In this document: positions 6,962-35,500 of the stretch, one piece after another
Layout: every line of letters begins with the position of its first letter
Numbering within the stretch: position 1 is the first letter of the stretch
Source of the DNA: a virus
DNA length: 64,000 nt
Reading direction: 5' to 3' (one strand)
IMG/VR virus record: IMGVR_UViG_3300044647_001247
Coordinates: 45,820-109,819 of that record
Notes under the pieces: generated by a model
What the model was told of the DNA's origin: nothing
What the model saw: the letters and a program-made list of their open reading frames with translations, nothing else
Database searches by the model: none
Translations under genes and position numbers: made by a program

Positions 6962-7570
6962 GTGAGTAAACCATATAAAAAACCAGATCTTAACGCTCCT
7001 AGGTATAGACCAAAGAAGTTAAATTTTACCAATGCTACTTTTTATGAGCAATTTGTAAAAGATAATCCTAAGTATTCAAGTCTCATCACTCTAGAAATGT
7101 TTAAGAATATAATTACCACGTTCAATGGTAAAATCTGGAAAACTGTGGTAGAAGACAGAGATGGTGTAGAACTTCCTGAGCAGCTTGGTTTTATTTTTAT
7201 AGGTACATGTCCTCGTAAAAAAAGTAATATAGATTTTAATAAATCAGAGAAATATGGAGTAACACTCCAGAATCAAAACTGGGAGTCTGATCAGTATATA
7301 GCTAAGATATTCTATACAAATTTTGAAACTAAGTATAGGTTTAAACATCATGAGATGTGGGGATTTTCTGGTGTTAGAGATTTCAAAAGAACAATAGGTC
7401 AAACCTATCCCAAAGAGTGGAAGAAGTATTTAATGGTTGATAACTTAGTGAGAATAAGTAGAATATTTAGAAAGCAAAGATTCAAACAACATAAACAAGA
7501 ATTAACTAAAGACCTTCTTGAAACATATGATGAATTTAATTTAGAAAATCCATGGGCAGAACTACAATAG
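6962..7570 (+). CDS. IHF/HU-like protein of the crAss tail module
   Basis: Basic protein with DGVELPEQLGFIFI (HU/IHF beta-arm-like). Sits before the tail ring genes as in crAss-like phages. GTG start. Confidence 0.6.
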   Translation: MSKPYKKPDLNAPRYRPKKLNFTNATFYEQFVKDNPKYSSLITLEMFKNIITTFNGKIWKTVVEDRDGVELPEQLGFIFIGTCPRKKSNIDFNKSEKYGVTLQNQNWESDQYIAKIFYTNFETKYRFKHHEMWGFSGVRDFKRTIGQTYPKEWKKYLMVDNLVRISRIFRKQRFKQHKQELTKDLLETYDEFNLENPWAELQ

Positions 7571-8226
7571 GAAACGTTATTTCAAGAATACGTACACAGG
7601 TTAAGGCTGTTAGGCAAGATGCTTTCTTGACTGATCGGGCCATTTATGCTTTTATATTAAAGCATAGTAAGTGGCTCATGAAAAGAGAAGATAGTAAAAA
7701 TAAACTTCTTGGTTATTCTGGTATTATACAAACCTTGGATTTTGTTGAATTAGAAGAAATTGATAAAGTGGAAGCTAAGTGTACAGGAGTATCTTCAGAT
7801 TGTGTTATTAAAAGAACTAAATCTGTAATGCCTGTATTTATGCAGGGATATTATGGTCCACTAATTAGAAGTGTAACTTCTTTAGATGCATCTGAAGAAC
7901 TTCAAATTACCAATCCTAGTACGTATTTGGTAATGAGTAGAAGCAAAAACTTCAAATATAATAAAACTAAATACTATTGGTATTTAAATGATTATTTATA
8001 TTTTCCTAATTTAGAATGGGATGCTATTCGTGTAGAAGGAATATTTGAAGATGATATTTCTAATTTTACTTGTGCACAAGATAGTTGTGTTCAGAAAGTT
8101 GATCAACCTTTTAATGTACCTGATTATCTTTCTGGTGAGATAGAAAATAATGTATTTAAAGATCTTGTAGGAATGCTTCAACTACCCTCAGATGTAAGTG
8201 CAGATAAGCAAAATATAAGTAGATGA
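7552..8226 (+). CDS. putative tail ring/adaptor protein
   Basis: Size, position and YYWYLNDYLYF...IRVEGIFED pattern recalled from crAss-like tail ring proteins. Confidence 0.55.
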   Translation: MGRTTIGNVISRIRTQVKAVRQDAFLTDRAIYAFILKHSKWLMKREDSKNKLLGYSGIIQTLDFVELEEIDKVEAKCTGVSSDCVIKRTKSVMPVFMQGYYGPLIRSVTSLDASEELQITNPSTYLVMSRSKNFKYNKTKYYWYLNDYLYFPNLEWDAIRVEGIFEDDISNFTCAQDSCVQKVDQPFNVPDYLSGEIENNVFKDLVGMLQLPSDVSADKQNISR

Positions 8227-9089
8227 AAACAGAACTTTCATATAAAACATTTGATGAACTTCTTAGTGAGGTGGCAACAGACTTTGCCACTTATAACAAT
8301 GAGGGGATGATTGAACCAGGTCAACTTATCAAGGTGGCTCAAAGAGTTAGTTATGATTTGGGTCTTAGAATACATGGTACAAAAGAAAAAGTTTTAGAGG
8401 TAACAAATAAAAAAACAAAGCTTCCTGATGATTTTTATGTTTTAAACTATGCTTATTTATGTGGTAAGTATAGTGTTACAAATGCTGTCCTATCAGGAAG
8501 ACAAACAGAAGATGTTATTTTAAATAGTTCTTATTGTTCTAAATGTGGAGAGCCCGATCCTACATGCACTTGTGAAAAAACATACACTATTGAATGTAAC
8601 ACAGGAGAGAAGATATTTGTACAGGTGGTTGAAAAAAGAAAATATGAAACCAGGGTGTATGATAGTTTTACACCTATCAGCATTGCAACATCTACTGGAA
8701 GAATAGATGCTCTAGATGATTCTAAACCAGCTGGTTATATTAAGAACAAGTTTATATACACTAATATAGAAGAGGGAAGTTTGTTTATATCTTATGAAGG
8801 TGCTCTAGAAGATGAACATGGAAACTTGTTAGTATTAGATCACCCTATGATTAATGAATATTATGAATATGCTTTTAAGCAAAGGATTCTTGAAAATCTA
8901 TACATTAATGGAGAAGATGTAATGCAAAAAATGCAACTTATAGAACAGCGTCTTAGAGCTGCTCGTAATAATGCTTTAACAATAGTGAACACTCCAAATT
9001 TTTCAGAAATGAAGAAATTATGGGAAACAAACCGTAAAGCTCAATATGGACGATATTATAATATGTTCAAATCAGGAGAAAGCTGGTAA
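8223..9089 (+). CDS. putative tail tubular/ring protein
   Basis: KLPDDF...FIYTNIEEG.LFISY...DEHGNLLVLDHP..EYYEY, with an internal CSKC..CTC insert. Synteny with crAss-like tail modules. Confidence 0.6.
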   Translation: MKTELSYKTFDELLSEVATDFATYNNEGMIEPGQLIKVAQRVSYDLGLRIHGTKEKVLEVTNKKTKLPDDFYVLNYAYLCGKYSVTNAVLSGRQTEDVILNSSYCSKCGEPDPTCTCEKTYTIECNTGEKIFVQVVEKRKYETRVYDSFTPISIATSTGRIDALDDSKPAGYIKNKFIYTNIEEGSLFISYEGALEDEHGNLLVLDHPMINEYYEYAFKQRILENLYINGEDVMQKMQLIEQRLRAARNNALTIVNTPNFSEMKKLWETNRKAQYGRYYNMFKSGESW

Positions 9090-9456
9090 CACCTTCAGAC
9101 GTTGCAGCACAACTATACAGTTTACAACTTATGGATGTAAGCTTGTTATTGCTGTAGTGGATAGTGTTAAAAAAGAGGTGGAGAAATTATATAAAAAATA
9201 CAAGATTGATGAGGAATTTGATGATGATGCAGAAGGGGCATTAGTAATGCCTGATATGAAAACTTATTATTTACTTCTAGGAAAGGCGTTCATCACTCAT
9301 AACACTATAGCTCATGAAGTGTTTCATGCATCTGTAAGAATTACAGAACATCGTGGAATAACTGATGAAGAAACTCAAGCTTGGATGGCAGGGCACATTA
9401 CAGAGATATTATATAAGTTTTTAGAAAAAAAGAAGTTAGAAGTAAAACATGGCTGA
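9046..9456 (+). CDS. small zincin-like metallopeptidase
   Basis: AHEVFH (HExxH, 9313-9327) with downstream DEETQAW as third ligand. Confidence 0.7.
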   Translation: MDDIIICSNQEKAGNTFRRCSTTIQFTTYGCKLVIAVVDSVKKEVEKLYKKYKIDEEFDDDAEGALVMPDMKTYYLLLGKAFITHNTIAHEVFHASVRITEHRGITDEETQAWMAGHITEILYKFLEKKKLEVKHG

Positions 9457-12400
9457 GCAACAACAAAATCCTGGAGTGATCACTAACACCTTTAGTAATG
9501 GTATGGTGAAAGACTACAATGAAACATTTGTAGGAGAAGGATTATATACTCATGCTCGCAATGTTGTAAGTAATTCACATGATGGTCAGCTTGGTGTAAA
9601 AGGTAATGAGCCAGCTAACTTAAGTTGCATCACTCTTCCTTATAGCTTAATAGGATGTATTCATCTTTCTGATGATCAATGGTCTGTATATACAACAGAT
9701 GATACTAATTCTGAGATAGGAATATTTGATGAAAGTCAATGCACTTATACAAAGGTGGTAAATGATCCATGTTTAGGATTTAAAAGATCTAACTTAATTA
9801 CAGGTGCTTCACGTAAACGTTATGATTGCGATAGACCTGTTTATTGGGTTGATGCACTGAATCCAGATAGATTTATGGATCTTAGTAATCCCCCTTTTAA
9901 ATATATAGAAACTATAGTTGATGGTTGTAAAGTAAAAACTATAACACAACCTTTACAGCTTGATTGTGAAAAGATAAGACTTGCATCTTTAATACAACAT
10001 CCTTGTTTAATCTTAAATAAAGGAAAAGTTGCAGGAACTTTACCTAATGGTTCTTATCAAGTTGCTATAGCTTACACTGAAGATGGTGTTAGATTAACCG
10101 GGTATATTGGAATATCAGAAGTACAATCATTATTTACACATGAAAATGTTAGTTCTTCTTTAGAACTATCAATTACTACTATAGATACAACATTTGACGA
10201 ATTTGAGTTAGTTGTAATTGGTCGTATTAATGGTACAACAGTAGTTAAAAAAATAGGAAACTACTCAACCTCACAAGGTAAAATATACATTGACAGGTGG
10301 GATCAAGAGTTTGAAACAGTGCCAATTAGTCAAGTGGTATTTAGAGGAGACTCTTCTGAAAAAAGTGATGCTATATACGAAGTGAATAATTATTTATTAA
10401 AAATTGGAGACTATTCAAAGTTTAAATTTAATTATCAAAAACAAGCTAATAATATAAATGTTAGTTGGACAGCTGTTCAATATCCTTCTAATTATTATTT
10501 TAAAGGTGGAAATAATACTGGTTATTTAAGAGATGAACAATATTCATTTTTTATAAGATGGGTATACAACACTGGTGAACGTTCTGAGTCCTATCATATA
10601 CCTGGAAGAGATGCTCTAGCTAGTGATAGAACTTTAGTAATGGGAGATGATGCTTTTGAAACATCTGGTATAGATTCTATTACAAGAGAAAGATGGCAGG
10701 TGTATAATACAGCCACTTTAGATAATCTAAATAGTTACACTCTTTCTGATGGAGGGCTTGTTATAGCATCAGGTAAAATGGGATTTTGGGAAAGCACTGA
10801 AAAATATCCAGATAACACTCCTGATATTTGGGGAACATTATGTGGAAAAAACATTAGACATCATAAGATGCCTGATGAAACTACAGCTCCATCCTTAAAT
10901 TTATTTTCAAATAATGGTAAATTTATTAATATTCTTGGAGTTAACTTTAGTAATATAACTCATCCTTTAGACAACCAAGGTAATCCTATACAGTCAATTG
11001 TAGGATATGAATTATTAAGAGGATCTAGAGAAGGTAATAAATCTATTATTGGAAAAGGACTGCTTAATAATATGAGGGAATATTCTATTCCTAATCAAAC
11101 AACTAAAGGGCTTTTTCAAAATTATCCATACAATGATTTAAGACCAGATCCTTATTTAACAGATTCTCCTAATTTAGATGGTCAATCTGCATTAAAAGGA
11201 CAAGCTAATGTTTCCACTTCAAAAATGAGTGGCTATAAAAAGAATATATTTTCATTTCATAGTCCTGATGTAACTTTTTCCAATCCTTTTTTAAATGCCA
11301 ATGAACTAACTATTTATCAGGAAGTGTATGGTGAATCTAATGGTAGATTTGTTAATTCTTGGAAACATCCTAAATTTAAAGTTTTAAGTAATTTTAGTTC
11401 AGTTTTCGGAGATGTAGCTTCTATAATAAGCACAGTTCAAACAGCTCTTGGAGCACTTGGAGGAGGTCTTGATTTAAAAATTGAAGCTGATAAAGATGCT
11501 CCTGTATCAACAGGACTAACTTTAAATCCAAACTATGCTGGAGATACAGTTACTGTTTTTGGTTCAGGTGCCTCACCTTTAACTATTGCACAGTTTATTG
11601 CAGCAGGTGTTGCAAATGGACTTTTAATAGGTGCGTTGATAGGAACAGGTATTCTACCAGCAATGTATAAACAACAGTATTTAAGACTTTTTATATATTT
11701 AATTCCTAAAAAACAATACTCAGCTCAATATAATTCACATGGTGTTTATGATGGAGGAGCCATACCAAAAAAAATAGGTAATAAAAGAAGAAAGATTAAA
11801 GAAGCATTATATATAGGAAGTGGAAATAGCCAGTTTAATTCTGACTATTTTGTTAATAACACAGCTAGAAGTAATGTAGTTGTTTTAGAAACTGAAAAAG
11901 ATTTGGATGATCCAACCACTACAGACAATAGTAGAGTGACATTAGGTGAAGCAAATAGTAATTTATATCAAAATATTAAAACAACTATATCAAGTCACTA
12001 TGGTGCTTTAAAAATTAGCATACCTTCTCAATATGGTCAATTAGGTGGAATAAAACAATTTCCTATAAATGGAGGTTGTATTTTTAACACTACACCTGAT
12101 AAGACTAAAAAGTTTAATACATCTTCTCCACTTTTTAACGGAGACACTTATATAAATAAATTTACTGAAAAAAACACAATGTTCTTTTTCACTGATTGGA
12201 TGATTGGTGAGCCTGATAGAACTGAATGGGATTACACTTTATATATGTATATTCCCTATCCAAGATTTTGGATAAATAATGTAGAAGAAAATGTAGCTTT
12301 TTTAGAAGCAGCTGATAATTATAGATCATTAGATAAAAGAACATCTGGTTTCTTACATGTAAGTTCTGGATATTTTTATTTATTTAATTCTGGTGTTAGA

Positions 12401-14047
12401 GAGTTTTTTGTTGAAAGTGAGGTTAATTTAGCATATAGAGATTGGGAAGAAGATCCATCTAAGCGTCATTATGATTCTGATAGATACACTGATCTTGATA
12501 GTATGTTTAGAAGTGACATTATAAAAAGTGGAAACTTTTATAAATATGATTATAACTTAAGTGTATCTAAATTATTTAATTCTCATATTACTTGGGGAAA
12601 TATATTAGGTCTTGATTATGATCCTACCACTGCAGAAAAATGTTACGTATATAGACCTAGTAGAGTTAGATATTCTCTTCCTCAATTTCAAGAATCAAAA
12701 AAAGATAACTGGAGAATATATTTAACTAACAATTATAAAGATTTTGACTCTCCTGTAACATCTATAAAATCTGTAAATAAAACAGGTGCTTTGTTTATGA
12801 TGTCAAGACAGAGTCCTATGCAGTTTATGGGTGTAGAAGAACTGAAGCTAGATGGAACGGGTGCTAAAATTACAATAGGTGATGGGGGGCTTTTTAATCA
12901 ACCTTTACAACAAATTGTAAATACCGAAAGTTCTTTTGAGTATGGTTCTTGCCAAAGTAAGTATTGTTCTATTAATACAATACACGGTGTTTTTTGGGTG
13001 AGTCAAAATCAGGGAAAGATATTTCAGTATGCTGGACAAATAAAAGAGATATCTAAAAATGGTCTTAAGTGGTGGTTTGCTAGATATTTACCTAGTGAAC
13101 TATTAGCAGCGTATCCCACCTATCCTTATTTTGATAACCCGGTAATTGGTGTAGGGGTACAAATAATGTATGACAATACTAATGAGATTGTATATATTAC
13201 TAAGAAAGACTATAAACCACTAAAAACCAATTTGTTATTTGACTCAAAAGGTTTTTATGAAATAAGTTCATCTAATGGTAAGGTGTACATTCCTTTAACT
13301 AACACTAGTTATTTTGAAGATGCTAGCTGGACTATATCATATGATCCAAACGGGAATGATGGTAAAGGTGCTTGGGTTAGTTTTCATGACTGGATACCTA
13401 GCTTTTTAATTCCTGGGAAAGCTCATTTTATGAGTGTCAATCAAAATTCTATATGGAAGCATAATGTAAGATGTGATAAGTTCTGTAATTTTTATGGTGT
13501 AGATTATCCTTTTGAAATTGAGTTTATATCATCTACGGGTCAGCAAGTTGTTTCTATGAGAAACGTAGAGTATATATTAGAAGCTTATAAAATTCACAAT
13601 GAATGCAGAGATGAGTTCCATGTATTAGATGCAAACTTTGATCAGGCTATTATATATAATTCAGAACAAGTATCTGGACTTTTAGAACTAGAACTTAAGA
13701 ATAAAACCAACCCGGTGGCAATGCTTAGTTATCCTCAGATAAGAGCACAATCTATAGGAATAAACTATTCTAAAGAAGAGCAAAAGATTAGATTTAATCA
13801 ATTTTGGGATATAACAAAAGAAAGAGGAGAGTTTGCCCCAAATACAAACATTCCAATGTTTATTACAGAGGCTAATGGATATAAGTTTAAAATCAATCCA
13901 GCTTATGTAAACTATCAAAAGTCACCATTAGAGCGTAAGAAGTTTCGTCACAATTTAAATAAAGTGTTCTTAAGAAAGTTTAAAAGTGATGATGTAAAGA
14001 TGTTATTTAAAATATCTAATCAGAAAATACAACTTAGTCAAAGGTAA
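9449..14047 (+). CDS. tail stabilisation/muzzle protein (P22 gp10-like, crAss type)
   Basis: 1532 aa, beta-rich. N-terminal NTFSNGMVKD..Y..ARN, GYLRDEQYSFFIRW, and C-terminal WTISY..AWVSFHDWIP, all typical of this family. Confidence 0.8.
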   Translation: MAEQQQNPGVITNTFSNGMVKDYNETFVGEGLYTHARNVVSNSHDGQLGVKGNEPANLSCITLPYSLIGCIHLSDDQWSVYTTDDTNSEIGIFDESQCTYTKVVNDPCLGFKRSNLITGASRKRYDCDRPVYWVDALNPDRFMDLSNPPFKYIETIVDGCKVKTITQPLQLDCEKIRLASLIQHPCLILNKGKVAGTLPNGSYQVAIAYTEDGVRLTGYIGISEVQSLFTHENVSSSLELSITTIDTTFDEFELVVIGRINGTTVVKKIGNYSTSQGKIYIDRWDQEFETVPISQVVFRGDSSEKSDAIYEVNNYLLKIGDYSKFKFNYQKQANNINVSWTAVQYPSNYYFKGGNNTGYLRDEQYSFFIRWVYNTGERSESYHIPGRDALASDRTLVMGDDAFETSGIDSITRERWQVYNTATLDNLNSYTLSDGGLVIASGKMGFWESTEKYPDNTPDIWGTLCGKNIRHHKMPDETTAPSLNLFSNNGKFINILGVNFSNITHPLDNQGNPIQSIVGYELLRGSREGNKSIIGKGLLNNMREYSIPNQTTKGLFQNYPYNDLRPDPYLTDSPNLDGQSALKGQANVSTSKMSGYKKNIFSFHSPDVTFSNPFLNANELTIYQEVYGESNGRFVNSWKHPKFKVLSNFSSVFGDVASIISTVQTALGALGGGLDLKIEADKDAPVSTGLTLNPNYAGDTVTVFGSGASPLTIAQFIAAGVANGLLIGALIGTGILPAMYKQQYLRLFIYLIPKKQYSAQYNSHGVYDGGAIPKKIGNKRRKIKEALYIGSGNSQFNSDYFVNNTARSNVVVLETEKDLDDPTTTDNSRVTLGEANSNLYQNIKTTISSHYGALKISIPSQYGQLGGIKQFPINGGCIFNTTPDKTKKFNTSSPLFNGDTYINKFTEKNTMFFFTDWMIGEPDRTEWDYTLYMYIPYPRFWINNVEENVAFLEAADNYRSLDKRTSGFLHVSSGYFYLFNSGVREFFVESEVNLAYRDWEEDPSKRHYDSDRYTDLDSMFRSDIIKSGNFYKYDYNLSVSKLFNSHITWGNILGLDYDPTTAEKCYVYRPSRVRYSLPQFQESKKDNWRIYLTNNYKDFDSPVTSIKSVNKTGALFMMSRQSPMQFMGVEELKLDGTGAKITIGDGGLFNQPLQQIVNTESSFEYGSCQSKYCSINTIHGVFWVSQNQGKIFQYAGQIKEISKNGLKWWFARYLPSELLAAYPTYPYFDNPVIGVGVQIMYDNTNEIVYITKKDYKPLKTNLLFDSKGFYEISSSNGKVYIPLTNTSYFEDASWTISYDPNGNDGKGAWVSFHDWIPSFLIPGKAHFMSVNQNSIWKHNVRCDKFCNFYGVDYPFEIEFISSTGQQVVSMRNVEYILEAYKIHNECRDEFHVLDANFDQAIIYNSEQVSGLLELELKNKTNPVAMLSYPQIRAQSIGINYSKEEQKIRFNQFWDITKERGEFAPNTNIPMFITEANGYKFKINPAYVNYQKSPLERKKFRHNLNKVFLRKFKSDDVKMLFKISNQKIQLSQR

Positions 14048-16992
14048 TGAAACGGACAGATTCTATATTACAGCAGTTTTATATGTCTAGGCTTCCTAAA
14101 GCTCAGATGGGACTAGCCATATCTGATGGTACAAGGGTGGCACCAAGACCAAAAGCTTTAACTGAAGCTGAATATCAAGAAAATGAACGTGCTAGAAAAA
14201 TAACAAAAGAAGGCACTGAAAGACGAAATAAGCAAATTTTAGAAGAAAGACAAAAAGCAAGAAATACAAAAGGTACATTTAAGGAAAAGAACTTTAACAT
14301 AGGTGAGAAGTTTAGAATGTTTCCTGGTAGTGTAGGTGGTGCAGGAGAACTCTTTGATGACTATATCAATCCTTTAAAGTTTGTTGGAGACATGGCTTCA
14401 AATCTAGGTAATTCTAGAACACCCCAAGAAGCAGCTCTAAATGTAGCAATGACAGCAGGACTTGGTGCTCTTGGATTTGACCCATTAGGTAGTGGATTAA
14501 AATCTTCAGCTTTTAAAGAAGCACGTGCATCTTTTCCAAAATTTATAGATGAAGTTTCATATTCTATAAATAAACCTAAGTCTGTAGAACAAATAACTAA
14601 TAAGAATTTATATAAAGAATTAGGATCTCCTTTGAATATTTCAGAAGGATTAAATAATCAAGGTGTATTTAGTTTAAAAAGATTTCCTGACCATGTTGTA
14701 AAATTTGAGCCTGTTGAAACAGTAGGTAGAGGTATTGGTTATCCTGAATATACAAATTTTGATTTTGTAAGTGCTATGAAAAATATAAAAGATAAACCTA
14801 ACATAGCAAAGGTTAAAAATCAACTTAATGTAGAAAATAACAAGAGAGCTCTTATAATGAATAGGATTGATGATGGATACCGTCCTTTAGATCTTAATCC
14901 TATCAATTATAGAAAAATGCCAGATGACTCAGTTCGTAAAATGTACTATGACTTAAAAGATGTTATTAACAATGATTTAGGTTTTGATTTTATGGGTAAC
15001 AACTACCTATACAATCCTAAAACAAAAGATTTTTCATTATTTGATTTTTCTCCACAATTTAAAGCAGGTAATGATGGTAATTCACAATTCTGGATTAATG
15101 ATGTTTTAGGTAATACTAATAGTAATTTACTTGGTAAAGCTCAAGCTAATAAAAACTTAAAAACAGCAATTATATCTAAGCTTGTTAATGATCATAGAGT
15201 GGCTGGACAAAATTTATTTAAAGAGATTGGTACAGGATATACATTACGAAGTCATGCTGATATTTCAAAACTTCTTGATAAAGGTGATAAGTTTGCTTTT
15301 CAAAAATTTAATAATGCACTTAAAGATGTTGATATATATCAGCAAGGTGGTGTAATAAAAGATGACAGAGGACAATGGGCACATCCAGGTAAAGTAACTC
15401 GTATATCTAGTCCTAATATAACTATGAAGGGTGTACCCTATCCTGTACTAGGTGTAGGTTCTAATGGTGAAGAACAAATGATGTATCCAGGACAAGAATA
15501 TAATTTTGGTGGTGCATCTTATGTAGATGAATATCCTATGATGAAAAATGGTGGAGAAATGATTAAACGTAAAGATGGTAGTTATTCTAAAAGAGGACTC
15601 TGGGATAACATTAGAGCTAATAAAGGCTCAGGTAAAAAACCTAGTAAAGAAATGCTAGAACAAGAACGTAAAATAAAATCTAAAGAAATGAAATACGGAG
15701 GAACAAATAACTCAGGCTTTGAAGCTTTACCAGAATATGTACAAGCTAAAATATTAGCTAACATGGGATATGGTGGATATTATAATCCAATGATGGAAGA
15801 AGGTGGTGAACCTAATGGTGGCATGGCACTAGGTCAGATAATGGCTGTTTCAGATAAGATGAATAAGCTTCGTCAGTTTATATCTCCTGATAAAAACTTA
15901 GATCCATGGATTGCTTCTAAGCTTGCAGTTATGGATGATAGTGCAGATGCTATTGCTAATTATATGATGTACAATCCTGAAGCTCAGGGTGATGAAGAAG
16001 AAATCTCACAAATGAGTAGAGGAGGATATGTTGTAAGTAGAAGTAGTGCACGTAAGGGTAAGACACATAAAGTGACAGGTCCTGATGGAACTGTTAAATA
16101 CTTTGGTGATTCTAAGTTAGGACAGCATCCTGATGATCCTGAAAGAAAAAAAGCATTCTATGCTCGTCATAAAAAGAATTTAGATTCTAATCCATATTTT
16201 AGAGCCTTTGCTAAAGAAACATGGCAGCAGGGTGGACAACCTGGTTTATCATTTTGGAATGCTAGTAAAACTCCACAAGGTGCTGTTACACCTACAGGAA
16301 TGTCAAATTATTTTAATGATAATAAACAAGGTTTTGATCAAGCAAATTTTACTAAAAAGATGCAGGAGTTAAATCTTGATACATCAAGTAATGTATCATT
16401 ACAACAAGATATGATGAAAAAATATCCTGATCTTGTAAATCAAGTGATGTCTGAATATGGTGATACAAATGCAGGTAGATTTGATGATGGTATTATAGGA
16501 GCTAGAGTTATTAATGCTGCTAGTAAAATTCCTACTCAAACTAAACAAGTTCCTCCTCAAATACAACAATCAATGGCACCTCCTCCTGCTACATATAAAA
16601 ATCCAAATGCAGGATATGTAGTTAATGTAAGAGGAGATGATAATGACGGAGCTTATTATTTTCCTAGCTCTGAAAACTTTGACAAACTTAGTTCAGCAAT
16701 ACCTGGTGGTAAAGAATACAGAGATGGTTATAAAGGAGCAACAGTTAATATGACTAATGCAAACTTTATGAAACAATACGGAAACAACTACAAAGAAGCA
16801 CTAGGTCAAGCATACAAACGTAATCCACAAAATCCTGAGCAGTATATTCCAATGCAAAGAAATGGAGGATCTACTTGGTCTGGTAATAACTGGTATCAAA
16901 ATGGAGGTTTAGTAAATGGTGCAGAAATGGAAGTGACACCTGAACAAGCTGAGATGTTACGTCAACAAGGTTATGAATTTGAAATAATTTAA
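14047..16992 (+). CDS. putative ejected cargo polyprotein with kinase-like domain and xxGG-delimited modules
   Basis: Cys-free, follows the muzzle gene, repeated [MYFW]xxGG motif, kinase-like motifs at about 14620-15060. Confidence 0.6.
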   Translation: MKRTDSILQQFYMSRLPKAQMGLAISDGTRVAPRPKALTEAEYQENERARKITKEGTERRNKQILEERQKARNTKGTFKEKNFNIGEKFRMFPGSVGGAGELFDDYINPLKFVGDMASNLGNSRTPQEAALNVAMTAGLGALGFDPLGSGLKSSAFKEARASFPKFIDEVSYSINKPKSVEQITNKNLYKELGSPLNISEGLNNQGVFSLKRFPDHVVKFEPVETVGRGIGYPEYTNFDFVSAMKNIKDKPNIAKVKNQLNVENNKRALIMNRIDDGYRPLDLNPINYRKMPDDSVRKMYYDLKDVINNDLGFDFMGNNYLYNPKTKDFSLFDFSPQFKAGNDGNSQFWINDVLGNTNSNLLGKAQANKNLKTAIISKLVNDHRVAGQNLFKEIGTGYTLRSHADISKLLDKGDKFAFQKFNNALKDVDIYQQGGVIKDDRGQWAHPGKVTRISSPNITMKGVPYPVLGVGSNGEEQMMYPGQEYNFGGASYVDEYPMMKNGGEMIKRKDGSYSKRGLWDNIRANKGSGKKPSKEMLEQERKIKSKEMKYGGTNNSGFEALPEYVQAKILANMGYGGYYNPMMEEGGEPNGGMALGQIMAVSDKMNKLRQFISPDKNLDPWIASKLAVMDDSADAIANYMMYNPEAQGDEEEISQMSRGGYVVSRSSARKGKTHKVTGPDGTVKYFGDSKLGQHPDDPERKKAFYARHKKNLDSNPYFRAFAKETWQQGGQPGLSFWNASKTPQGAVTPTGMSNYFNDNKQGFDQANFTKKMQELNLDTSSNVSLQQDMMKKYPDLVNQVMSEYGDTNAGRFDDGIIGARVINAASKIPTQTKQVPPQIQQSMAPPPATYKNPNAGYVVNVRGDDNDGAYYFPSSENFDKLSSAIPGGKEYRDGYKGATVNMTNANFMKQYGNNYKEALGQAYKRNPQNPEQYIPMQRNGGSTWSGNNWYQNGGLVNGAEMEVTPEQAEMLRQQGYEFEII

Positions 16993-16996
16993 TATT

Positions 16997-19900
16997 ATGA
17001 AAATACGCATTACAAAAAAAGGATTGCCTAAAGCACAATGGCAAAATAGTCAAATACCAGGAGGTCAAGCTATTAATCCAAGAAAAGTAGCAGGAAAGGA
17101 AAACTTGACCTCTTGGAATGTTTTTGATAATGCACCACAGCAAGGTGTTCCTACACAATTTATTGATCCTCAATCAGTTGTAAACACAGAACGTAATGTT
17201 TGGAATTATAGTCCCTATCGTAATAGTCAAGGTGAAAGTATAACAGGTGATGAGTATTATAATCAATTTTGGACTCCTCCTAACACTCCTGCAAAAACTG
17301 CTCCTAATATAAATAAAAAATCTACTTATAAAAAAACAAATAACTTTAATGATTATTTTGCTGCAGGAGCAATGACATTAAATGCTTTAGATAATAGACA
17401 AACTGATAAGGAGTTGGAAGCTTCTTGGCGGAATGGTCTTATTAGTCCTGGTATTATTGATTATTCTCAAAACAGAGGAGATTATGAAATGAACACTGGT
17501 ATGGTAGACCCTTATAATACAGGAGCAAAAAACAAAGGACAATTTACTAATTCTTTTTATACTTCACAGTTTCAAGAAGGTGGTATATTTACACTAAATG
17601 AGGTGCAACAAGCTATATTACCTAATATGTTATCGGTAGCTTATGAAAGAAACACACCTGCATCAACATATGTTAATCCACCTAATAATTCATTAAAAAT
17701 AGATTACACAGATGCTGCTGATTTTATTAAATCACAGGAAGGATTTATACCAAAAGCAAAATGGGACTATGCTCAATATAGTGTAGGATATGGCACAAAA
17801 GCTAAAAATAAGAATGAAGTTATTTCTAAAGAAGAAGCTGAAAATAGATTAAAATTAGAACTTGCTCCTGTAATGGAAAAAATACAGAGCAAGCTTAAAG
17901 TTCCTATTAATTCAGGTCAACTTATAGCTCTTGCTTCTATAAATTATAATACAGGTTCTTTAGCAAATAAATTAATTGATAGAATTAATAAGGGTGAAAG
18001 TCCTGACATTATAGCAAATACTATTAAAAGCATGGCATTAACTGGTGTGGGTAGTAATAAAATATTACCGGGATTAGTTAAACGTAGGAATGAAGAAGCT
18101 GGCTTATTTTTACGTGGTTATGAAAATGGTGGTGAAAATACAGAAATTATGAAAATACGTATTACAAATTCTCCTGAGAAAATGGAGTATGGTGGTCAAT
18201 CTAATTATGCATTAGATCTTGGAAGAAAGAATATGTACACTGATATGCCTACTTCTCCATATGAAAGTGTAAGTAAAACAATTCAGGAAGTTCCTGAAGA
18301 GTTTGCTACAATAGAAGCAGAAAAAGGAGAAACTATTCTTACTGATGTAGATGGTGATGGTATCAGAGAACATATGAATATTGAAGGTAAATATCATGAA
18401 TATGGTGGTACTAATCTTGCAGCTAATCCTGGTGATTTTGTTTTTTCTAATCATAAACCAAAGATGGCAATCAAAGATCCAACTGTTTTAAAACTATTTG
18501 ATAAGAAGTTTAAGAAAGGTGGTTACACTCCTGCTGAAATAGCAAAGCAGTATGACTTAAATAAATACAAAGCAGTGTTAGAAAATAAAGATGCTGATAA
18601 GTATGATAAAAATACAGCAGAATTAATGTCTAATAATATTAATAAAAAGTTAGGTATGTTGTCTTTTGTACAAGAAGCTATAAAAGGTTTTCCACAAGGA
18701 ATACCTGAAGTGGCTAAGTCAACAATGGGTCAAAATAATCAAGTTGCATATGGTGGGTATATTCCTGAAATGGCTTATGGTGGTTATCTGGAACAATATC
18801 AAGATAAGGGGCAAGTTACTCCTTCTTGGCTTAAACCATGGTTAAAATCTAATACACAAAAAGGTAGAACAAGTCCCACTGGAAAAATGACAACTTATAA
18901 TCCAGATGTAGATAATATATACAAAGAGCTTGACTATTGGCAGAAAAGAGCAGGAAGAAATTTTAAGAGTGCTGATGATATGCAATCTTTTATATATTCT
19001 TCAATAGAAAAGGAAGATCCTTCTATAATAGAAGATATGTGGAAGAAGTGGGGGAACACAGCAAAAAGTAAAAACACTGATCTAGCTAATTTTGCTGATA
19101 ATACAATAGGAGCAAGAACTGCTGATTTACTAAATACTTATAGAACAAAAAGAGGGCAACCTGTTTCTATACCTAGAAATGTTAAATCTAATTTTAATCT
19201 TCCTCCTTTAAATACAAATTCTATAGATTTGCCATTAACTGTTCCTAATCCATTTACACCACCTTCAGATAAAGTTCCTGATTTTAATGAATCAAAAGGT
19301 AATACTCCTTATGGTTGGACAAATCCTGATAAAAGAAATTTAGCTAATGCTCTTATAAATAGAAGCTATATTAAAAAATATCCTAGTGTAAGGTCAGATG
19401 TTAATCCTGCTATGTCTGATTTTAGAAATATGGATTGGAGAGGAAAGGCAGCGGAGCTTCAAGGAACTTATAATAGCCAACTTAATACATTAGGTAATTT
19501 TCAGTCACCCACCTCTTTAGCTGCAAATATGTCCTTTATGGCAGGACAGCAGGGTGAAAATTTAGTTAATCGTGCTATAGAACCTACAGAACAACAAAAT
19601 GTAAATATTTATAATCAAGTGGCTGGACAGAATGCAAACATTATGAATAACGCATTAGCTAATGCTGCACAAAATAAGTTCTTACGTTCTGGAGAGAGAG
19701 CAGTAGTAAATCAGAGGTATAATCAAGAAATGATTGATTTTAACAATGCATATACACAAGCACGAAATCAAGGAGAGAATAATGCTGCTGGTATATATAA
19801 TACTAATGTAACAGAAAGTCCTTATTATTATATAGATCCTGCTACACAAAGAATGAAGTTTAATTCTGATAATGCACGTGCTGCTTTTGAAGCAGCTAGA

Positions 19901-26526: not shown

Positions 26527-29500
26527 ATGAATAAGTGTAGTATAAGTATACAGATTTTTGCCAATTTTACTAAGCAACTGTTAGCTCAAGATGCTAAGTA
26601 TAAAAACTTTGCTGAAGTTGCAACGTTTATTATCAAGCGTCCTGGACAACCTGATAGTGTAAAGATGGTTGCTCTTAAAGGACTTGCTAAGATATATGAT
26701 CAGCTGGCTAAAAAAGACCAGACCTTTAGCTTTTCTGCAGATGACAGCAAAATCATTGATGTAGATTTGGAAAAAGATGATTTAGAAACACAGTTTAAAA
26801 ACATTGCTGCTAACTACCAAGTACGTCCTTCAGCTCCTCTTTCTATAGATACTATCAAGAATGATATAAAAAATCTTTCTTCTCTTCCAGTTTTGCAATT
26901 GCAGGACGCTGTTACTAAAATCGTAAAAGACATAGCTGCTCTTGCCAAAACTAATTTTCGTAAGAGTGCAGACGACATGGTTAAAATCATTGGTGAGCTT
27001 TATGATAGAGCTATTACTGAGCTAGATAAAAATACAGCAGTGAGTCCTATTATTCGGAACTCACTTACACAGCTTCTTAATACCGAAAAGAATATTGCTA
27101 CAGAAGCTGCCAGTGATTATATTCCTTTAAAGAATACAATATACGGGGATACTAAAATCATAGTCAAGAAAGACGGTGGAATATTTGAAGTTTTAAGAGA
27201 CACTACTGGAAAATATATTGACATTAATTCATCAGATAGTTCAGAAGTAATATTTGATAGATCTGTTGGAGATCAGTTATTTAATCTTAGAGTGGACAGT
27301 TCACCTTTTGTAGGTGGTAACGATGGCACTCAATATATATTTTCTCACAATGAGTTGAGAAATGGTATGACCTTACGTGATCGTACCGGGAAAGTTATAA
27401 CTAACCAATTGCTTAGTTTTGATAATCCACTTTCTGCTCTTGAAGTGGTAGCTTCCCGTACAGAAATACAACGTAACCAAGACCGCATTAGTAGAATTCG
27501 TTCAGAAATACCTACACGTACTCTTGAAACACAAGAGGTAGTCTCACAACAAAAAGCTTTGCTAGCAGGTAATCCTGTGCTTAGTGTATTTTCTCCTTTA
27601 GAAGGTGCACAAATACAGTTTCGTATTCCAGGGCAGCAAGGAGCTATGATATTATATGGTATAGATAACTATGCTATTATCTATCCTGATAATCGTACAG
27701 TGGCTGTAGACTTTTCTGAGACTCAGAAACAACTTATTTTAAAGCTTGCCCGCAAGAATACTACTAATGAAAATGGAATAAATGTAACAGAACCTATTAC
27801 AGAAGAAGACTTTTATAATCTGAAAGCCAGTTATGAAAAATTTAAAGATTTTAAGAAAGCTGTACAAGAAATCCTTGATCAAAATAAAAACCAATCTGAA
27901 ATTATTTTACCACAAGCTTTAGTTACTGCTTATATTAATCTTGCCCGTACTGGTGAAGCTATTGCTGTTGCACCCAGTGCAGATCAACAAGCTAGTCTAA
28001 CTACATTGTTAAACAAAGAAGGAGGTCCTGGACAGATTAGTTTTAATGTAGTAGAAGCTTTAGATGATAATTCTTATTCTGAACCACGTCGTGTTACTAA
28101 ACCTATTATAGTAGCTAAACAAGGTGGTGTTTGGACATTTATATCAGACCTTAAGGGTAATGAGATGGTTGCTGTTGATCGTGATGATAGAAAAGAATAT
28201 ATGTCTTTTTCTGATTATATGCAAAATGAACTTAAAATATCTCCAGATATTAACATACAAAAGTTTCCAAGTTCTTTTGCATGGCTTTATCAGAAACCTA
28301 ATGGTAAATTACAACCTATTGCTCTTAAGTATATACCAGTAGAAAATAGTGCAGATATTGCACGACTTGCTATGGGGTTTGGTCAGTTACTAAAAAAAAT
28401 GAGTGATCCTCAAACAGAAGGACCAAAAGAACTCAGAAACTTTAACTTGAACGTCTTTGGTTTTTCTCCCTATAATCCAACAGGTGCTACAAGTTTTGCA
28501 GGTGACTTTGACGTATTTAAAGATCCAAGTGGTGAACGCAGTGTGTCTATTCAGATTCGTCCTATGACTATGAACTGGAGCCAAGTACCTCGGGATGTAA
28601 GAAAGGCTTTAACTGTATATATAGATGTTCCTGTTATGACTGCTTTTTTAAAAGTGGTACGTATAGCTGCAGAAATACCTGCATTTAAATCACAGAAAAA
28701 TGACCTTAATACAGCGGCTGGTAAAAATGCTTTGGTAAAATTTATAGATGAAGATCCCCAGCTTCGTAAACAACTTATGAGTGCTTATGAAGATATTAAT
28801 ACACACCTCTATCGTAAGTTTCAGTCTATAGGTGAAAAACTTACTAAGACTTCTTATAATGGCGAGTTTGATATACCTAAGATTTACACACTGATGGAAA
28901 ATGAAAAAAGTGATCTTAGTGGAAGATGGAAGCTTAAAATAAAAGATCGTCAAACTGGTAATGATGTAACTAACTTTAACAACTATCGTAGCATGACTAC
29001 GGAAGAAGTGTTTACATTTGGTGGTATTCAGGCTGTGTTTGCAGGACCAAACGTTTCTGCTATACAGACAGTTAATAAACCAGCTCCAGTAACACAAAAT
29101 CCTGCTAACAACACTACAGCAGATAATGTTCCTGGTACTGCTGGAACTATAGAGATAGATCTTAATTTTGAAGATGGTGCTTTTGAACTTGCTATGGATA
29201 CTGAACTTTTCCAAGCATATCAAGCAGGGCAGTTTCAGCAAGAACTAGATTGGATTAAAGCAAATCTACCAAAAGAAATCAGCGTAGAAGACCTAGCTGA
29301 TATTATGGATAATCTTAAAGCTGAAGGTCGTGTACTTGGTTATTTTAGAGACCGAGTTATCTATCTCAATGAACAGCTTTCTGGTAGAGGATCAGGATAT
29401 CATGAAGCATTCCATGGTGTGTTTAGAAAACTAATGGATGCTTCTACTCGTGATCGTTACTTAAAACTTACCAAAGAAAAAATAGGAGCTGTTTCTAAAG

Positions 29501-32500
29501 AGCAGATTCAAGAATTCCGTCAAAGACGTTCTCTTTATCATTTATCTAATGCTCAGGTTATAGATCGTATAGCAGAAGAATATTTAGCTGATAAATTTAA
29601 AGCATATAAGTTAGAAGGTCGTGGTGCTCAGGAAGGTTGGCTAAATAAGCTAATGAACTTAATAGATAGTATCATTCGTTTTTTTAACAAAAATTATAAA
29701 GAAATAGATAACCTGTTTCAAAGAATTGATACAGGATTCTATAAGAATGCAAAGATTGTAGGTGAGTTTAAGGAAGGTGCGTTTGAAATGCTATCTACCC
29801 GTAGTACACTAGTAACAGGTCCTACAGGAAAAGCTATACAAAGAAAGAACTTTCTTAATAAAATTGACCAAGCACAGTTGATAAATAGACTAGCTGAACT
29901 AACTTCTTTTTCAGTAGGTAAAAACTTTGAAGAAAAGTTTGCAGGAGCTCGTAAAGAGCTAATAGCAGAAATGAACATAGATAACCTAATTGCTCAAAAT
30001 CCTTCTGAAGAATTAGCTATTCGTACACGTTATGAATCCATTCTTCAGGATAAACTTTATACTCTAGGTGTACCTGTATCTATGATTAATGAAACAGGTA
30101 ATGTTACTATGGATCAGAACTTAAATTTAATACAAAAGGATCCTGTACAGCTAGCAGCTTATAATAAGCAGCAAGCTGATACATTAAAGTCTTTAAAGCA
30201 ACAAGTTAGTCAAAAGATAAACAACATTTCTATATCAAACATATACTTTGATCCCGACGCTATGCTGAATGAAGAAGAGTTTGATGAAGATGATCTAGGT
30301 GATGAAACAAATTATGAAGATAGCTTTGTAAACATAAATACTTTGGACGGCTTGAGCCGTCAGTTTCGTTCATTTTTTGGTCTAATTTCTTATATTCATA
30401 CAGACGATCTGGGAGTACAAACCACCCGTATGGTAGATGGAGCTACAGTTTTTGATACCATGATGAAAATCTTAGCTGACACACCTGTAGAAAAGATGAT
30501 GTCTCGTATGGAAGAAACTCTAGAAAAAATGCTAGAGTCTGATAACATGGTAGCATATGATCGTCTTAATGCAGTGTGGGATAAGATGAAAAAATACTTT
30601 GGTCTTAATGAAAATAATCAACCTACACGTAATACAAATCTTTATAATCAGTTTATTGATGTATTTAATGTAGCAGATCTATCTACAGATGTATACTATG
30701 TAAACACTCGTAATGATTCTTCTAGTCTTAGAGTTATTGATGCCACTATACAAAATGATATTAATCAGTATTATGAAAAGTTAAGAAGAAAGTATGAGAA
30801 TGGTTTTATGAAAAAGTCTACCAAAGATCGTGAAGATATTCTTCGTGTATCCAAAGCTATTCTTAAAACTGAAGTGACTGTACCAACAGACCTTGGTAGT
30901 CAAAGTTATAATTCAATAAAAGCTAAAGCAAAAAAAGTACACAAGGCTCTTAATGATATAGGTATTATATTACCTCTGCATACCGTTATTTACTCTTTAA
31001 TTGCAATTGATGTAAAAGAAAATAAAGTAGAGTTAAAACCTAAAAGTAAATCTTTAAAGCAATACATATTAGATCAAGAACTTATTAATACAGGAGCTTA
31101 TCTTGATAAAGATTTTTTTGATAAAATTGTTAGATATGTAGATGAAAATACAAATATTTTTGATAAGTCTGTAGATAAAGATGTTGCTACAGAAGGAACT
31201 CTTGGTCTTACTGACTTAGAAAAGAATCAGCTTCGTTTAAAGAAAAGAGGACTGGGTTTAATTAATTCTGTACTAAAAAAGACAGGACGTTATGTTGTTA
31301 AGTATGATCTTGATACTGTAGTGTCTGTATTTCGTAATGCAGAAGGTAAAAATGTTTATCGTTATGTACGTAAAAGTCCACCATTATTAATAGCACAGTC
31401 ATTGAGAGAAAAAGGATGGCAAGATACTTATTCTGATTTTTCAACTGTTGCTAAGTTCTTACAAGACAACCCACTTACAGCTAATAAGCCTGAAAATTTG
31501 CTCTACTTACAAAACATTGAGCTTAGAAGTTTTGGTGGAGCTCGTCAAACACTTAAAGGTGTAGAACGAGATGGTGTTACAGCTAAGACTATTGATACAG
31601 CAGGTTACTATCTAAGCTATGTCCTGATGTCTATGAACCGTAAAACAACTATAAATAATAACGCTGCTATTACAACTTTTTCTAGGATGCTTACTCAAAA
31701 TGAAGCTTCTAATACTATATATATGATACCAAATCTATATAAAAGAATGGTAACAAATAATGGATATATAGTTGAAAATAAAGAAAATATAGTGGTTAAA
31801 GGTTTTGTAGACGTTATCAAACAAGAATACCAGCGTATACAAAGAGAATGGACTACACGTAAAGATCAGAATAAAGAAAAATTTAATAATTATAATGCTG
31901 TTTTAAATCCTGATGGATCTGTAAACACAGAAGATCCATCTTTGCGTGCGTACAACTTTAATATGCTTGCTGATTTTTTTGAGTTTAATAATCTTGCATC
32001 TAAAACATCTAATCCACTACGTGCTGATATCCGCAATCAACTTATACAAAGTGCAAAAGATGGAATAAAGTTTGATAAGCTTGATATTGGTTTACTGCAG
32101 CGTGAACTTCTTAATTATGCAGAAGAAAAGTTTACTGCTCATTTAAACATACTAAAGTCTTACAAACTAGTTGAAGAAAATGAACAGACTAGTGAACTTA
32201 TGAGCCGTCTTATTCCTGATAGTTACACCGTTGATGGTACAACTGTAAGTATTGAATCAGAGGATTCTAATCTAGAGTCTTATCTAAAAGATGTCTATTT
32301 TAACGTATTTATAAACAACTTGCAGGTGTCACAGTTTTTTGATGGTGATATAGCAATGGGTGTTAAAAACTTTGCTGACTACTTTAAGCGTCAGAAAATG
32401 AACGTTGCTGCTGGACCTTCTATGAAGAGTGGTAATCATACTGTAGCATATGTAGATGAAATTACTGTTCTTATTAATGATAACAATCTTGAAGAAGGGC

Positions 32501-35500
32501 AGTATGACGAGAATGATGAAATGCCTGAAGGATTTATAAATCGTTCACAAAAAGTCAAAAGTTTTGATGGTCAGTCTGTTACAACAATAGAACATCGTAT
32601 TGAACAATATCGTAAACAGGGAAGACTTGTTGATAATGCAGAAGAGCAAAAATCTGTAGAAGAGATTCTTAAAGCTAGCCGTTACAGTAAACTTACTGAA
32701 GAAGAAGTAGACTTCTTGAGAAGTAACAAGGTAGTGCTTGGACCAAAGAAAACAGTAACGGGTGCTTTAGTATACTATCATAAACAAGCAGAACACGTTT
32801 TGTTTCGTACAGATAGTTCTTATATGGTTGTACCAGATGGAATGACGCGTGCTCAGGTTGAAAAAAGACTAGCAGAATTATATAATCAAACTGACATTCT
32901 CCGGTCCAAGCTTCGTAATGCAGATACATATGATATCACAGCAGAGGGAGGTGTGCAATTTATAGAAGATCAGCTTCGTGATGTTTACTCTCAAATCCAT
33001 AGATATTGGGAACCATTACCAAATCGTGCTGCTCATCACTATATGCTTAATTCTATGGAATTTAATGATATTGACCAGCTTATGGATCTCACTTCTTCTA
33101 AAAAAGCTACATTACTTCCTACAAAAGTTAACAGTGGTGCTATTACTGATCTCAGTAAATCTAAACTTTTAGTACCAAATATTTATAAGTTTGATCAGGT
33201 AGAAACTTCTAAAGTTTCTACAGATATTAGTTCTACTACACAGCTTCAACATCTGATAGATACAGATATTAATCTTGATGATAAAGAAGTTGACTCTAAT
33301 TTAAAAGATGCTATTCTGCAATATCGTAAGTTAACTGGTAGACTATCTCAAGTAGGTCTTGACAGACTAAATAACATCATTAAAGATGAAAATGGTAATG
33401 TAGAAGTACGTGAGATTATCCGTAGTATGAGAGATGGTCTTGAAACTCAGGGAGCTGATAGTAACACTTTAAAGTTCTTTGAGATAAGAGATGATCAGCC
33501 TGTACACAACATTAATCTTCCTTTGTTGAAGAAGATGTTTACTTATTACTACTTTGCTTTTTATTCTAATAATGTATTTAGTAAACGTCAAAGTGGTAGA
33601 AAAGATTATATAGTTACTAGCTGGGGATATAAACTTATTGAAAATCGTACTACTGGTGAAGTTATTAAAAGTGATGAGATTGCAAAAAATCCACAAAAGT
33701 ATAATGACACTTCTAAATATAAGCTTCGCTACCCTGGTGTAAAGTATGATAAAGTTAACAACCGTTACATTGTAGAAGTTATGGTTCCTCGTCCGTATTT
33801 TAAGAACCAGGAAGAGATTGAACTTTTTGAACGTAAACTTAGTGAGTTTTTATCTACACGTATTCCAACAGAAGATAAACGTTCTATGATTGTAGCTAAA
33901 GTTGTAGATTTTATTGATGGAGCTTACCAAAATACTATTGTTATACCACAGCTTATTCACGTACTTTCAGGTTCTGACCTTGACATTGACTCTTTATATT
34001 CTCATACGTTTGCTACTTATGAAGACTTTAACGGTAAGCAAAAAGTATATGGTGAGGCAAACACTCCTAAAGAACAGTTTGTAGAATATTTACAAAGTAT
34101 GATGCAAGATGAAACACTAGCCTCACTTATAAAAGTAGAATTAGATAAAGTGTATAAAGAAAAAATCACTGATGTTCCTGAATCTTTACAAGATTTAGCA
34201 GAAGATTTAAATTTACCTTTTTACAATTACACTAAAGAACAGTGGATGGCTGCTTTAGATGAACTCAGAATACAACGTAACAATATATATGAGCAGGTGC
34301 AGTCTACAAAAGAAAAGCGTAAGCAGACTCAAGAGATTTATGAAAAAGTAAAAGCTGAAAATGAACAAATGGTTCAGCAAATTACTGATAGTCTCAAAGC
34401 TTTTTTAAAAGAGCAAGACATAAAAACTACTCCAGATAAATTTGCTGAATTACTTTGGGAACAGACAGCTATAATGAAATCTAATTTCCGTGAGCAGGGT
34501 GATCTTCGTGTTTCTTTAGAAAAAATGAATAGCCGTATTAAAGATAGTTATGAAAATATAGCTACAGCTAATAAAAGAATTACTAATTCATCTAATGAAT
34601 TACAACGTATTAGTAGATTGATGAAAGTTTTAGCCACTTTGAACATACTTGCTCGAAAAAATATGCCTATTACAGCAAAACAGTATGCTAAAGAAGTTTC
34701 TAAAAAAGGATCACTTGTTCCTGAAACATTGCAAAATGATCTACTTCAGGTCAAGATAGATATACTTAGTAATCCTTATACATTTAAAAAATTATATATA
34801 CAAGAACGTTCTGATATATCTAGGTTTGAAAATATAGCAGTGGCTATGAAAAAAAGTATTAAAGATGTTATTAATAAAAATAATATTTTTTCACCAGATG
34901 GTATCATTGGATCTCGTGATATGGTTAAAAGTTCTGGTGCAGGTATTGGTATAGCAGCTAACGTTAATAAGTTTGCAGCTTTTGCTTCTAAGAAAGGCTT
35001 GAAGCTAAGTAATCCTATATGGAATGTTAACGGTAAAAACTATTCAGACTTTACAGCTGATAGTGAAAACCGGCCGATATCAGACATTGGTAATGCATTA
35101 GGTATGCAGGCAGATGCTAAAAGTAATCCTATTCCTGCTGTACTTAATCTTAATGAAGTTAGTTTACCTATCACACTAGTTATGATTGCACAAAAGCTTC
35201 CTTTAGAGATGGCTATTACAATCAATTCTGTACCACTTATATATAAAGTGATACAACGTGTTATGGAAGAAAAACGTGAAATACGTACAATAGCAGATTT
35301 GTTTAACAAACGTAGTCTTACAAGCATTGCTCGTGATGAGATGAGTGAGGCCATTGAAAAACTTAAAGAAGATGGTTTGCAGGCAGAGCTTTTTGAAGTA
35401 GATGATGAACAAAACATTATCTATGATATGGCTGGTAATCCTAAATTTAAAACTGATTTGTTTTTAGATTATGACTTTAATTATACTCCCACAGATAGAT

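Follow-up and report, generated by a model that had tools for sequence, protein, structure and literature searches.

A recurrent [MYFW]xxGG motif at the module borders of two cargo proteins in an uncultured crAss-like phage

In the crassvirus crAss001, a Bacteroides phage, the cargo protein C1 is stretched through portal and tail, where it docks helices of 32 and 14 amino acids (aa) and where short segments of it dock on the portal, the tail barrel and the muzzle; the crAss001 protein gp47 was also detected in virions (Bayfield et al. 2023, PMC10172136). Polyvalent proteins are large virion-delivered proteins in which unrelated effector domains are combined, with extensive mosaicism (Iyer et al. 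2017, PMC5512222). Here we describe a short motif, [MYFW]xxGG (the strict motif), which forms a recurrent seam in two adjacent genes, P0001 and P0002, of an uncultured crAss-like phage. The window, i.e. the whole stretch of DNA that was analysed, comprises 64,000 nucleotides of an IMG/VR contig of 109.8 kb (IMGVR_UViG_3300044647_001247; genome 84% complete) and carries a series of large open reading frames (ORFs) on the + strand. The motif is real and apparently undescribed: no description of it was found in the searchable literature, the crAss001 structure paper mentions neither the motif nor cleavage (PMC10172136), the Crassvirales review mentions neither proteolysis nor the motif, and the words 'glycine', 'linker' and 'GG motif' have zero occurrences in the polyvalent-protein paper (PMC5512222). 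For gp45, neither a band size nor termini are stated in the crAss001 papers or their supplements. Crassviruses rank among the most abundant of known phages and their cargo amounts to several megadaltons; a seam in cargo of this type offers a handle on how the cargo is organised, loaded and ejected, defines the boundaries of its modules and predicts where cleavage or docking should be sought.

The gene order around P0001 and P0002 is that of a crassvirus tail and cargo block. Pfam matches to CrAss_Ring_2 (7552-8226, E=1e-22) and CrAss_Ring_1 (8223-9089, E=4e-13) are followed by a muzzle-like ORF of 1532 aa (9449-14047), which shows a weak match to gp082 of phage phi14:2, and then by the two genes. 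Since the ring and muzzle genes lie directly upstream, P0001 and P0002 occupy the position of the crAss001 genes for C1 (gp45) and C2 (gp46), which also come directly after rings and muzzle. On the basis of this context the two proteins are read as modular polyvalent cargo proteins of the C1/C2 type with a conserved seam between the units, and by analogy they are probably stored in the phage particle and injected. Like the cargo described here, gp45 starts with a basic leader, which closes with aromatic-x-x-GG (...NIFDTGG), and contains a hydrophobic segment rich in Gly. However, its 21 GG pairs include only 3 strict motifs, gp46 has none, and neither protein contains a lysozyme, a kinase-like region or any of the small modules found here. 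Homology of P0001 or P0002 to gp45 or gp46 was not detected by BLASTP at E<=1e-3 (the best local match has E=1.2), and in the cultured Cellulophaga phage phi14:2 the motif is not enriched.

The likeness to polyvalent proteins lies in the complete GH24 lysozyme of P0002 (Pfam, residues 245-367, E=9e-17), in the domains ART-PolyVal, YkuD, DUF5872, DUF3597 and DUF5754 that Pfam identifies in relatives, and in the wealth of architectures given below; in addition, a kinase type has been described in polyvalent proteins of Bacteroidetes phages (PMC5512222). In contrast to the proteins of Iyer et al., the modules here are mostly tiny (25-80 aa) and MPTase-PolyVal was not detected. P0001 itself matches nothing in Pfam (E<=0.1) or PHROGs, and there is no close relative among 50,697 phage records, either in a nucleotide search with the region or in a protein search with P0001. 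Ejection proteins of the T7 gp16 type resemble P0002 in having a muralytic domain inside a large ejected podovirus protein, but they are not known to be modular in the same way or to have the seam motif.

In P0001 the seam sites are YQQGG (15337), YNFGG (15499), MKNGG (15541), MKYGG (15688), MGYGG (15763), MEEGG (15793), MSRGG (16012), WQQGG (16222), QRNGG (16855) and YQNGG (16894), and in P0002 they are FQEGG (17570), YENGG (18119), MEYGG (18182), FKKGG (18509), VAYGG (18743) and MAYGG (18770). All of these had been listed in the initial annotation with the exception of YNFGG, which it had missed. The strict motif accounts for nine sites in P0001 and five in P0002, together 14 in 2026 aa, where shuffling of the residues leads one to expect 1.8 +/- 1.3; none of 20000 shuffles reached 14. 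In the remaining ORFs of the window that reach 100 aa, 11 motifs are spread over 18003 aa (Fisher p=1.7e-8); the 46 kb of the contig outside the window does not rise above background either, and small basic proteins with the motif are absent from this genome. The enrichment in the two proteins is thus 8- to 11-fold, which bears out the enrichment over the rest of the proteome that had been anticipated.

Relatives were collected with residues 400-981 of P0001 (more than 1687, each covering only parts of the query). When 241 relatives were cut after each motif and the segments were compared pairwise, 76% of the 201 thousand high-scoring segment pairs covered at least 70% of both segments, i.e. 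they matched end to end. The segments fall into 74 module families with tight length ranges, combined in 192 distinct architectures, and many of the modules are only 25-31 aa long yet nearly invariant. Among full-length blocks of the relatives, 63% of the internal ends of homology lie within 8 aa of a motif, as compared to 18% expected. The borders of known domains behave in the same way. The P0002 lysozyme ends at R373, which is the end of stand-alone lysozymes in the PDB, and YENGG follows from residue 375; in relatives, DUF5872 starts two residues after FEGGG and DUF3597 one residue after YQKGG. The module borders proposed in the initial annotation are therefore found at the motif, and so is the shuffling that it had expected in orthologues. 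In the closest relative, L001, a block corresponding to P0001 residues 432-730 is 87% identical between unrelated flanks; its nucleotide identity starts and stops exactly at GG codons, and a third junction is located at YQNGG. Taken together, these sequence comparisons show that throughout the family the motif separates unrelated modules, which are shuffled exactly there. The seam in this way explains the free swapping of small effectors, lysozymes, kinases and ADP-ribosyltransferases.

The mobility of a single module is illustrated by the 80-aa stretch from MSRGG to WQQGG (module 0). It matches 293 clusters of a library made at 50% identity, in which it is 73-88% identical although the clusters that carry it are themselves less than 50% identical. 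The matching proteins are 115-2231 aa long, and the match may lie anywhere in them but invariably covers query residues 1-76. A stand-alone form was seen only in six short proteins, which are probably fragments as all of them are encoded on tiny contigs; an exhaustive phmmer search returned embedded copies only. The module at 16027-16236 had been called DUF5754-like. It has no Pfam match itself, but in the relative P0046 DUF5754 (PF19058, E=3e-7) is found between the same motifs, and the profile alignment runs through the slot, so that the likeness is one of positional equivalence only. The relatives P0022, P0038 and P0046 have Cys-containing micro-modules between seams as well, e.g. YEMGGQPCYECGG, and a 41-aa zinc-ribbon-like module (CxxC...CxxC) also sits between seams in this group. 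These modules are probably the reason why one relative is annotated as 'ribosomal protein S27E'.

The motif is abundant beyond this phage as well. In 122 relatives 1384 motifs were counted in 119.8 thousand residues, and 63% of all GG pairs in these proteins have M, Y, F or W at position -3, where L, I and V seldom occur. When 967 unique contexts were profiled position by position, information was confined to the motif itself, with mild preferences for A or Q at the first x, Y, N or E at the second, and E or Y after GG. In 65 related IMG/VR loci, 111 ORFs have at least four motifs and form clusters of 1-3 adjacent genes, whereas all other ORFs of these loci have 0.73 motifs per 1000 aa. The seam is found between units, after N-terminal leaders and before the C-terminal tail. 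Tandem motifs 9-13 aa apart are frequent, e.g. YAYGGYIPEMMYGG, and the motif also forms a 7-residue N-terminus, MYYQQGG.

Crossovers exactly at GG codons could also mean that a GGT GGT microhomology drives cassette exchange at the level of the DNA, and that the peptide is a by-product. In line with this, the first Gly is encoded by GGT in 72% of the cases, as compared to 57% in the background. The second Gly codon is at background, however, and the x-x positions vary together with their codons, while the M/Y/F/W constraint acts at the amino-acid level and six bases are too short for homologous recombination. As the use of Gly codons at the seam is near background overall, selection acts on the protein; a signal in the DNA was rejected on codon usage and we consider it very improbable.

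Whole genes have been captured at the seam, as the initial annotation had suggested for mini-genes. P0002 is composed of two parts of different distribution: residues 376-610 are the only part shared by approximately 40 loci, and the half with leader and lysozyme (1-375) recurs in one other locus. The start and leader MKIRIT of the downstream gene are retained in P0002 at aa 385 (MKIRITNSPEKMEYGG, window 18149-18196), and its counterpart in the approximately 40 related loci of other phages is a separate gene that starts with MKKYKVRIK..P.SMAYGG. This internal start marks the point at which a gene for leader and lysozyme was fused to the cargo gene that follows it. A second fusion point is evident in relatives, where fused forms keep '...DMANKPNNP...' and split forms begin with MANKPNNP, i.e. 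the old start codon was kept. The split form L034 ends with ...KIKSKNK*, exactly at the would-be motif site, and the motif is present in the fused genes.

The ends of the proteins are conserved too. The motif lies at or close to the end of N-terminal leaders (MNKLL...LPGLQKMQKGG, or MKIRITKKGLPKAQ). P0001 (14047-14112) and P0002 (16997-17065) both start with a basic leader in which LPKAQ is followed by G or GG, and of the 47 occurrences of this element in relatives, 42 fall within residues 1-40. At the other end a tail, ...GAEMEVTPEQAEMLRQQGYEFEII, follows the last seam of P0001 (16909-16989) and is also found in the homologues of L001-L049. Its consensus ...EVTPEQ..L..QGY.FEI[ILM] closes more than 200 of the 365 motif-rich proteins; the types of ending are Y[QE]FEI[ILM], NFEIID and GG.VEF[LI], and relatives show weak matches to DUF7210. 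The tail is a candidate packaging or portal-binding signal.

The seam itself might serve as a loading or docking tag, each copy binding weakly to procapsid, portal, tail lumen or other copies, such that any tag-flanked module is packaged; it would then resemble the cargo-loading peptides of encapsulins. The motif is indeed repeated, tandem and terminal, a Met or aromatic anchor is typical of short binding motifs, and GG sites flank the segments by which crAss001 C1 is docked on portal, tail barrel and muzzle. In the remaining proteins of this phage that are presumably packaged (1000, 1103, 3834 and 2182 aa), however, the frequency of the motif does not exceed background, and the same holds for crAss001 gp46 and gp47 and for all the cargo of phi14:2, which weakens a general role in loading. 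Moreover, true gene ends lack the motif, and the C-terminal tail ...GYEFEII is the better candidate for a loading signal. We consider a loading tag improbable.

We slightly favour, as a tentative reading, a seam that is not cut and acts as a flexible joint or docking point, over a protease site or a loading tag. P0001 and P0002 are chains of short units, namely putative docking helices, basic modules and some enzymes (the lysozyme and the kinase-like domain, for instance), and as proteins of the C1/C2 type they would be stored in the virion and leave it before the DNA does. The Gly-Gly pair would end the preceding helix or strand and supply a hinge, and the Met or aromatic residue would be a short anchor or contact point. 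The uncut chain would be stored stretched out, like crAss001 C1 through portal and tail, and would thread the narrow tail channel module by module. Surviving recombinants and fusions would be those that cross over at the seam, which would yield a plug-and-play repertoire; we propose that the crossovers sit there because only junctions at the seam leave both neighbours intact.

Several observations are in line with an uncut joint. Cutting at tandem motifs 9-13 aa apart, or at the 7-residue MYYQQGG, would free only scraps. The tiny, nearly invariant modules of 25-31 aa resemble the docking helices of crAss001 C1, an analogy that points to a joint. In crAss001 gp45, A[YFE]GG sites at 207, 261, 425 and 560 lie on either side of the two solved segments (214-245 and 425-552), and AFGG (425-428) is ordered in the portal-bound domain. 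An AlphaFold2 model of P0001 residues 495-740 places all six motifs in coil or where a helix ends, and the segments concerned have a predicted local distance difference test score (pLDDT) below 50; only the basic module 660-727 folds (pLDDT approximately 75).

Other observations speak against an uncut joint. The AlphaFold2 model is of low confidence (mean pLDDT 52), and the sites in crAss001 gp45 represent a looser form of the motif. A plain hinge leaves unexplained why M, Y, F or W, and almost never L, I or V, is found at -3, a specificity suggestive of a partner that recognises the residue. The motif also resembles viral cutting codes, namely those of adenain ((M/L/I)xGG), the coronavirus protease PLpro (LxGG) and African swine fever virus (ASFV; GG-X). 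The basic N-terminal leaders that end in the motif are propeptide-like. The absence of the motif at the true gene end of L034 and its presence upon fusion fit a separator and a cutting site alike. Furthermore, relatives join modules expected to act in the periplasm (lysozyme, YkuD) with modules expected to act in the cytoplasm (kinase-like, ART), two conserved HExxH candidates are encoded by this phage, and polyvalent proteins have been predicted to be processed by zincin-like peptidases (Iyer et al. 2017, PMC5512222).

All but the first two of these points would agree with a protease site, which we regard as possible, if somewhat doubtful. A phage metallopeptidase (the protein encoded at 9046, or the HEAFH region) or a host enzyme would cut at or next to the seams, in the head or after ejection, and would thereby strip leaders and free modules for different compartments. 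Maturation proteases of viruses recognise comparable codes: adenain (M/L/I)xGG-x, ASFV pS273R GG-x and T4 gp21 [L/I]xE, besides the prohead proteases of phiKZ and SPN3US. Like the seam, such codes are short and have a hydrophobic residue upstream of small residues; they are concentrated in virion proteins that are internal or ejected, where they follow leaders and separate functional pieces. The adenain code differs from the seam by one residue in spacing, no protease of the families named was found in this genome, and no cleavage is known in any crassvirus; in comparison with double-glycine leaders and their C39 systems, the hydrophobic residue of the seam is at -5 from the would-be cut, and not at -4. 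In the genome, as far as it is complete (84%), clan CE (C5, PF00770; C48, PF02902) gave no match at E<=1, and C39 (PF03412), the prohead proteases S77 and S78 (PF03420, PF04586) and MPTase-PolyVal (PF18818) gave none either. The ordered AFGG within the solved C1 domain and the scraps that tandem sites would produce weigh against cutting as well.

Two candidates for such a protease remain, and neither is tied to the motif. The small protein encoded at 9046 belongs to a virus-only family that has no Pfam model and in which H85, the HExxH (90-94) and E108/E109 are invariant. Its confident model (pLDDT 88) has a secondary-structure order like that of a zincin core, but was not placed in any fold, zincins included, by Foldseek or VIA-align (best Z 5.4); a weak Peptidase_M78 lead was obtained in the Atlas (score 0.88). 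In 21 related loci the gene precedes that of the muzzle. A consistent co-occurrence with motif-rich cargo was not borne out, as the gene is missing from that place in at least 10 loci with such cargo and from one complete genome. The modelled complex of the protein with P0001 residues 534-604 scored 0.00, which carries no weight either way. The second candidate is the HEAFH region of the 3834-aa cargo protein. YHEAFH.VF is shared by this protein with two related phages (42-89% identity) and, at aa 2157, with crAss001 gp47, and has thus been kept from this phage to a protein detected in virions; the cargo of crAss001 is only weakly motif-bearing, however. The Atlas places the region nearest to the 'large polyvalent protein' domains LPD23 and LPD1. 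It may represent a packaged zincin, comparable to the MPTase domain that the virion RNA polymerase of N4 contains.

A wider reading, which we likewise regard as possible but doubtful, is that the seam is the recognition code of a crassvirus-wide cargo-handling system, read by a virion-associated zincin (9046 or YHEAFH) or by a dock in portal or tail lumen, such that genes placed between seams are packaged, ejected and released as effectors. If so, the seam would represent a natural plug-and-play cassette for protein delivery, and should a protease or docking site read the seam, it could be used to load foreign proteins into phage particles. The coordinates of the features are given in Table 1.

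Table 1. Coordinates in the window of the cargo genes, their modules and seams, and the two peptidase candidates
Feature	Coordinates	Strand	Remarks
P0001	14047..16992	+	cargo protein, 981 aa, follows ring and muzzle genes; N-terminal LPKAQ leader, Gly/Ala-rich hydrophobic stretch, kinase-like region, motif-delimited modules, C-terminal tail
YQQGG seam	15337..15351	+	left junction of the block 87% identical with L001
YNFGG and MKNGG seams, 14 aa apart	15499..15555	+	close beta-rich module 15352-15513
Basic module RGLWDNIRANKGSGKKP, net charge +8, ends in MKYGG	15556..15702	+	
Nearly invariant 25-aa module ending in MGYGG, then 10-aa unit ending in MEEGG (tandem seam)	15703..15807	+	
Acidic helical module LDPWIASK, ends in MSRGG	15808..16026	+	
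Basic 70-aa module RKGKTHKV..YFG..RKKAFYARH, ends in WQQGG	16027..16236	+	
Variable 224-aa cassette, closed by QRNGG and YQNGG	16237..16908	+	unrelated to the L001 cassette at the same place
Conserved C-terminal tail ...EMEVTPEQAEMLRQQGYEFEII	16909..16989	+	common to more than 200 of 365 motif-rich relatives
P0002	16997..20134	+	cargo protein, 1045 aa; leader, uncharacterised region and GH24 lysozyme fused 5' of an otherwise independent cargo gene
FQEGG seam	17570..17584	+	upstream of lysozyme cassette
GH24 phage lysozyme domain, aa 235-373	17699..18115	+	
YENGG seam, internal gene start and leader MKIRITNSPEK (from 18149), MEYGG seam	18119..18196	+	
FKKGG seam, 87-aa module, tandem seams VAYGG and MAYGG	18509..18784	+	
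Candidate small metallopeptidase, 136 aa	9046..9456	+	overlaps 3' end of ring-1 gene
Candidate packaged zincin, HEAFH in the 3834-aa cargo protein (ORF 26527-38031)	29401..29415	+	residue 959

Two further observations concern other cargo ORFs. The 2182-aa ORF at 38049-44597 shows a weak match to a PD-(D/E)XK nuclease at residues 477-597; in length it nearly equals gp077 of phi14:2 (2180 aa), and its sole BLAST match, a weak one, is to gp076. Finally, in two related loci the motif-rich cargo has an HExxH of its own (HEIGH in L044:9809-11965 and HEFSH in L039:9797-12913), and these may be embedded peptidase modules.

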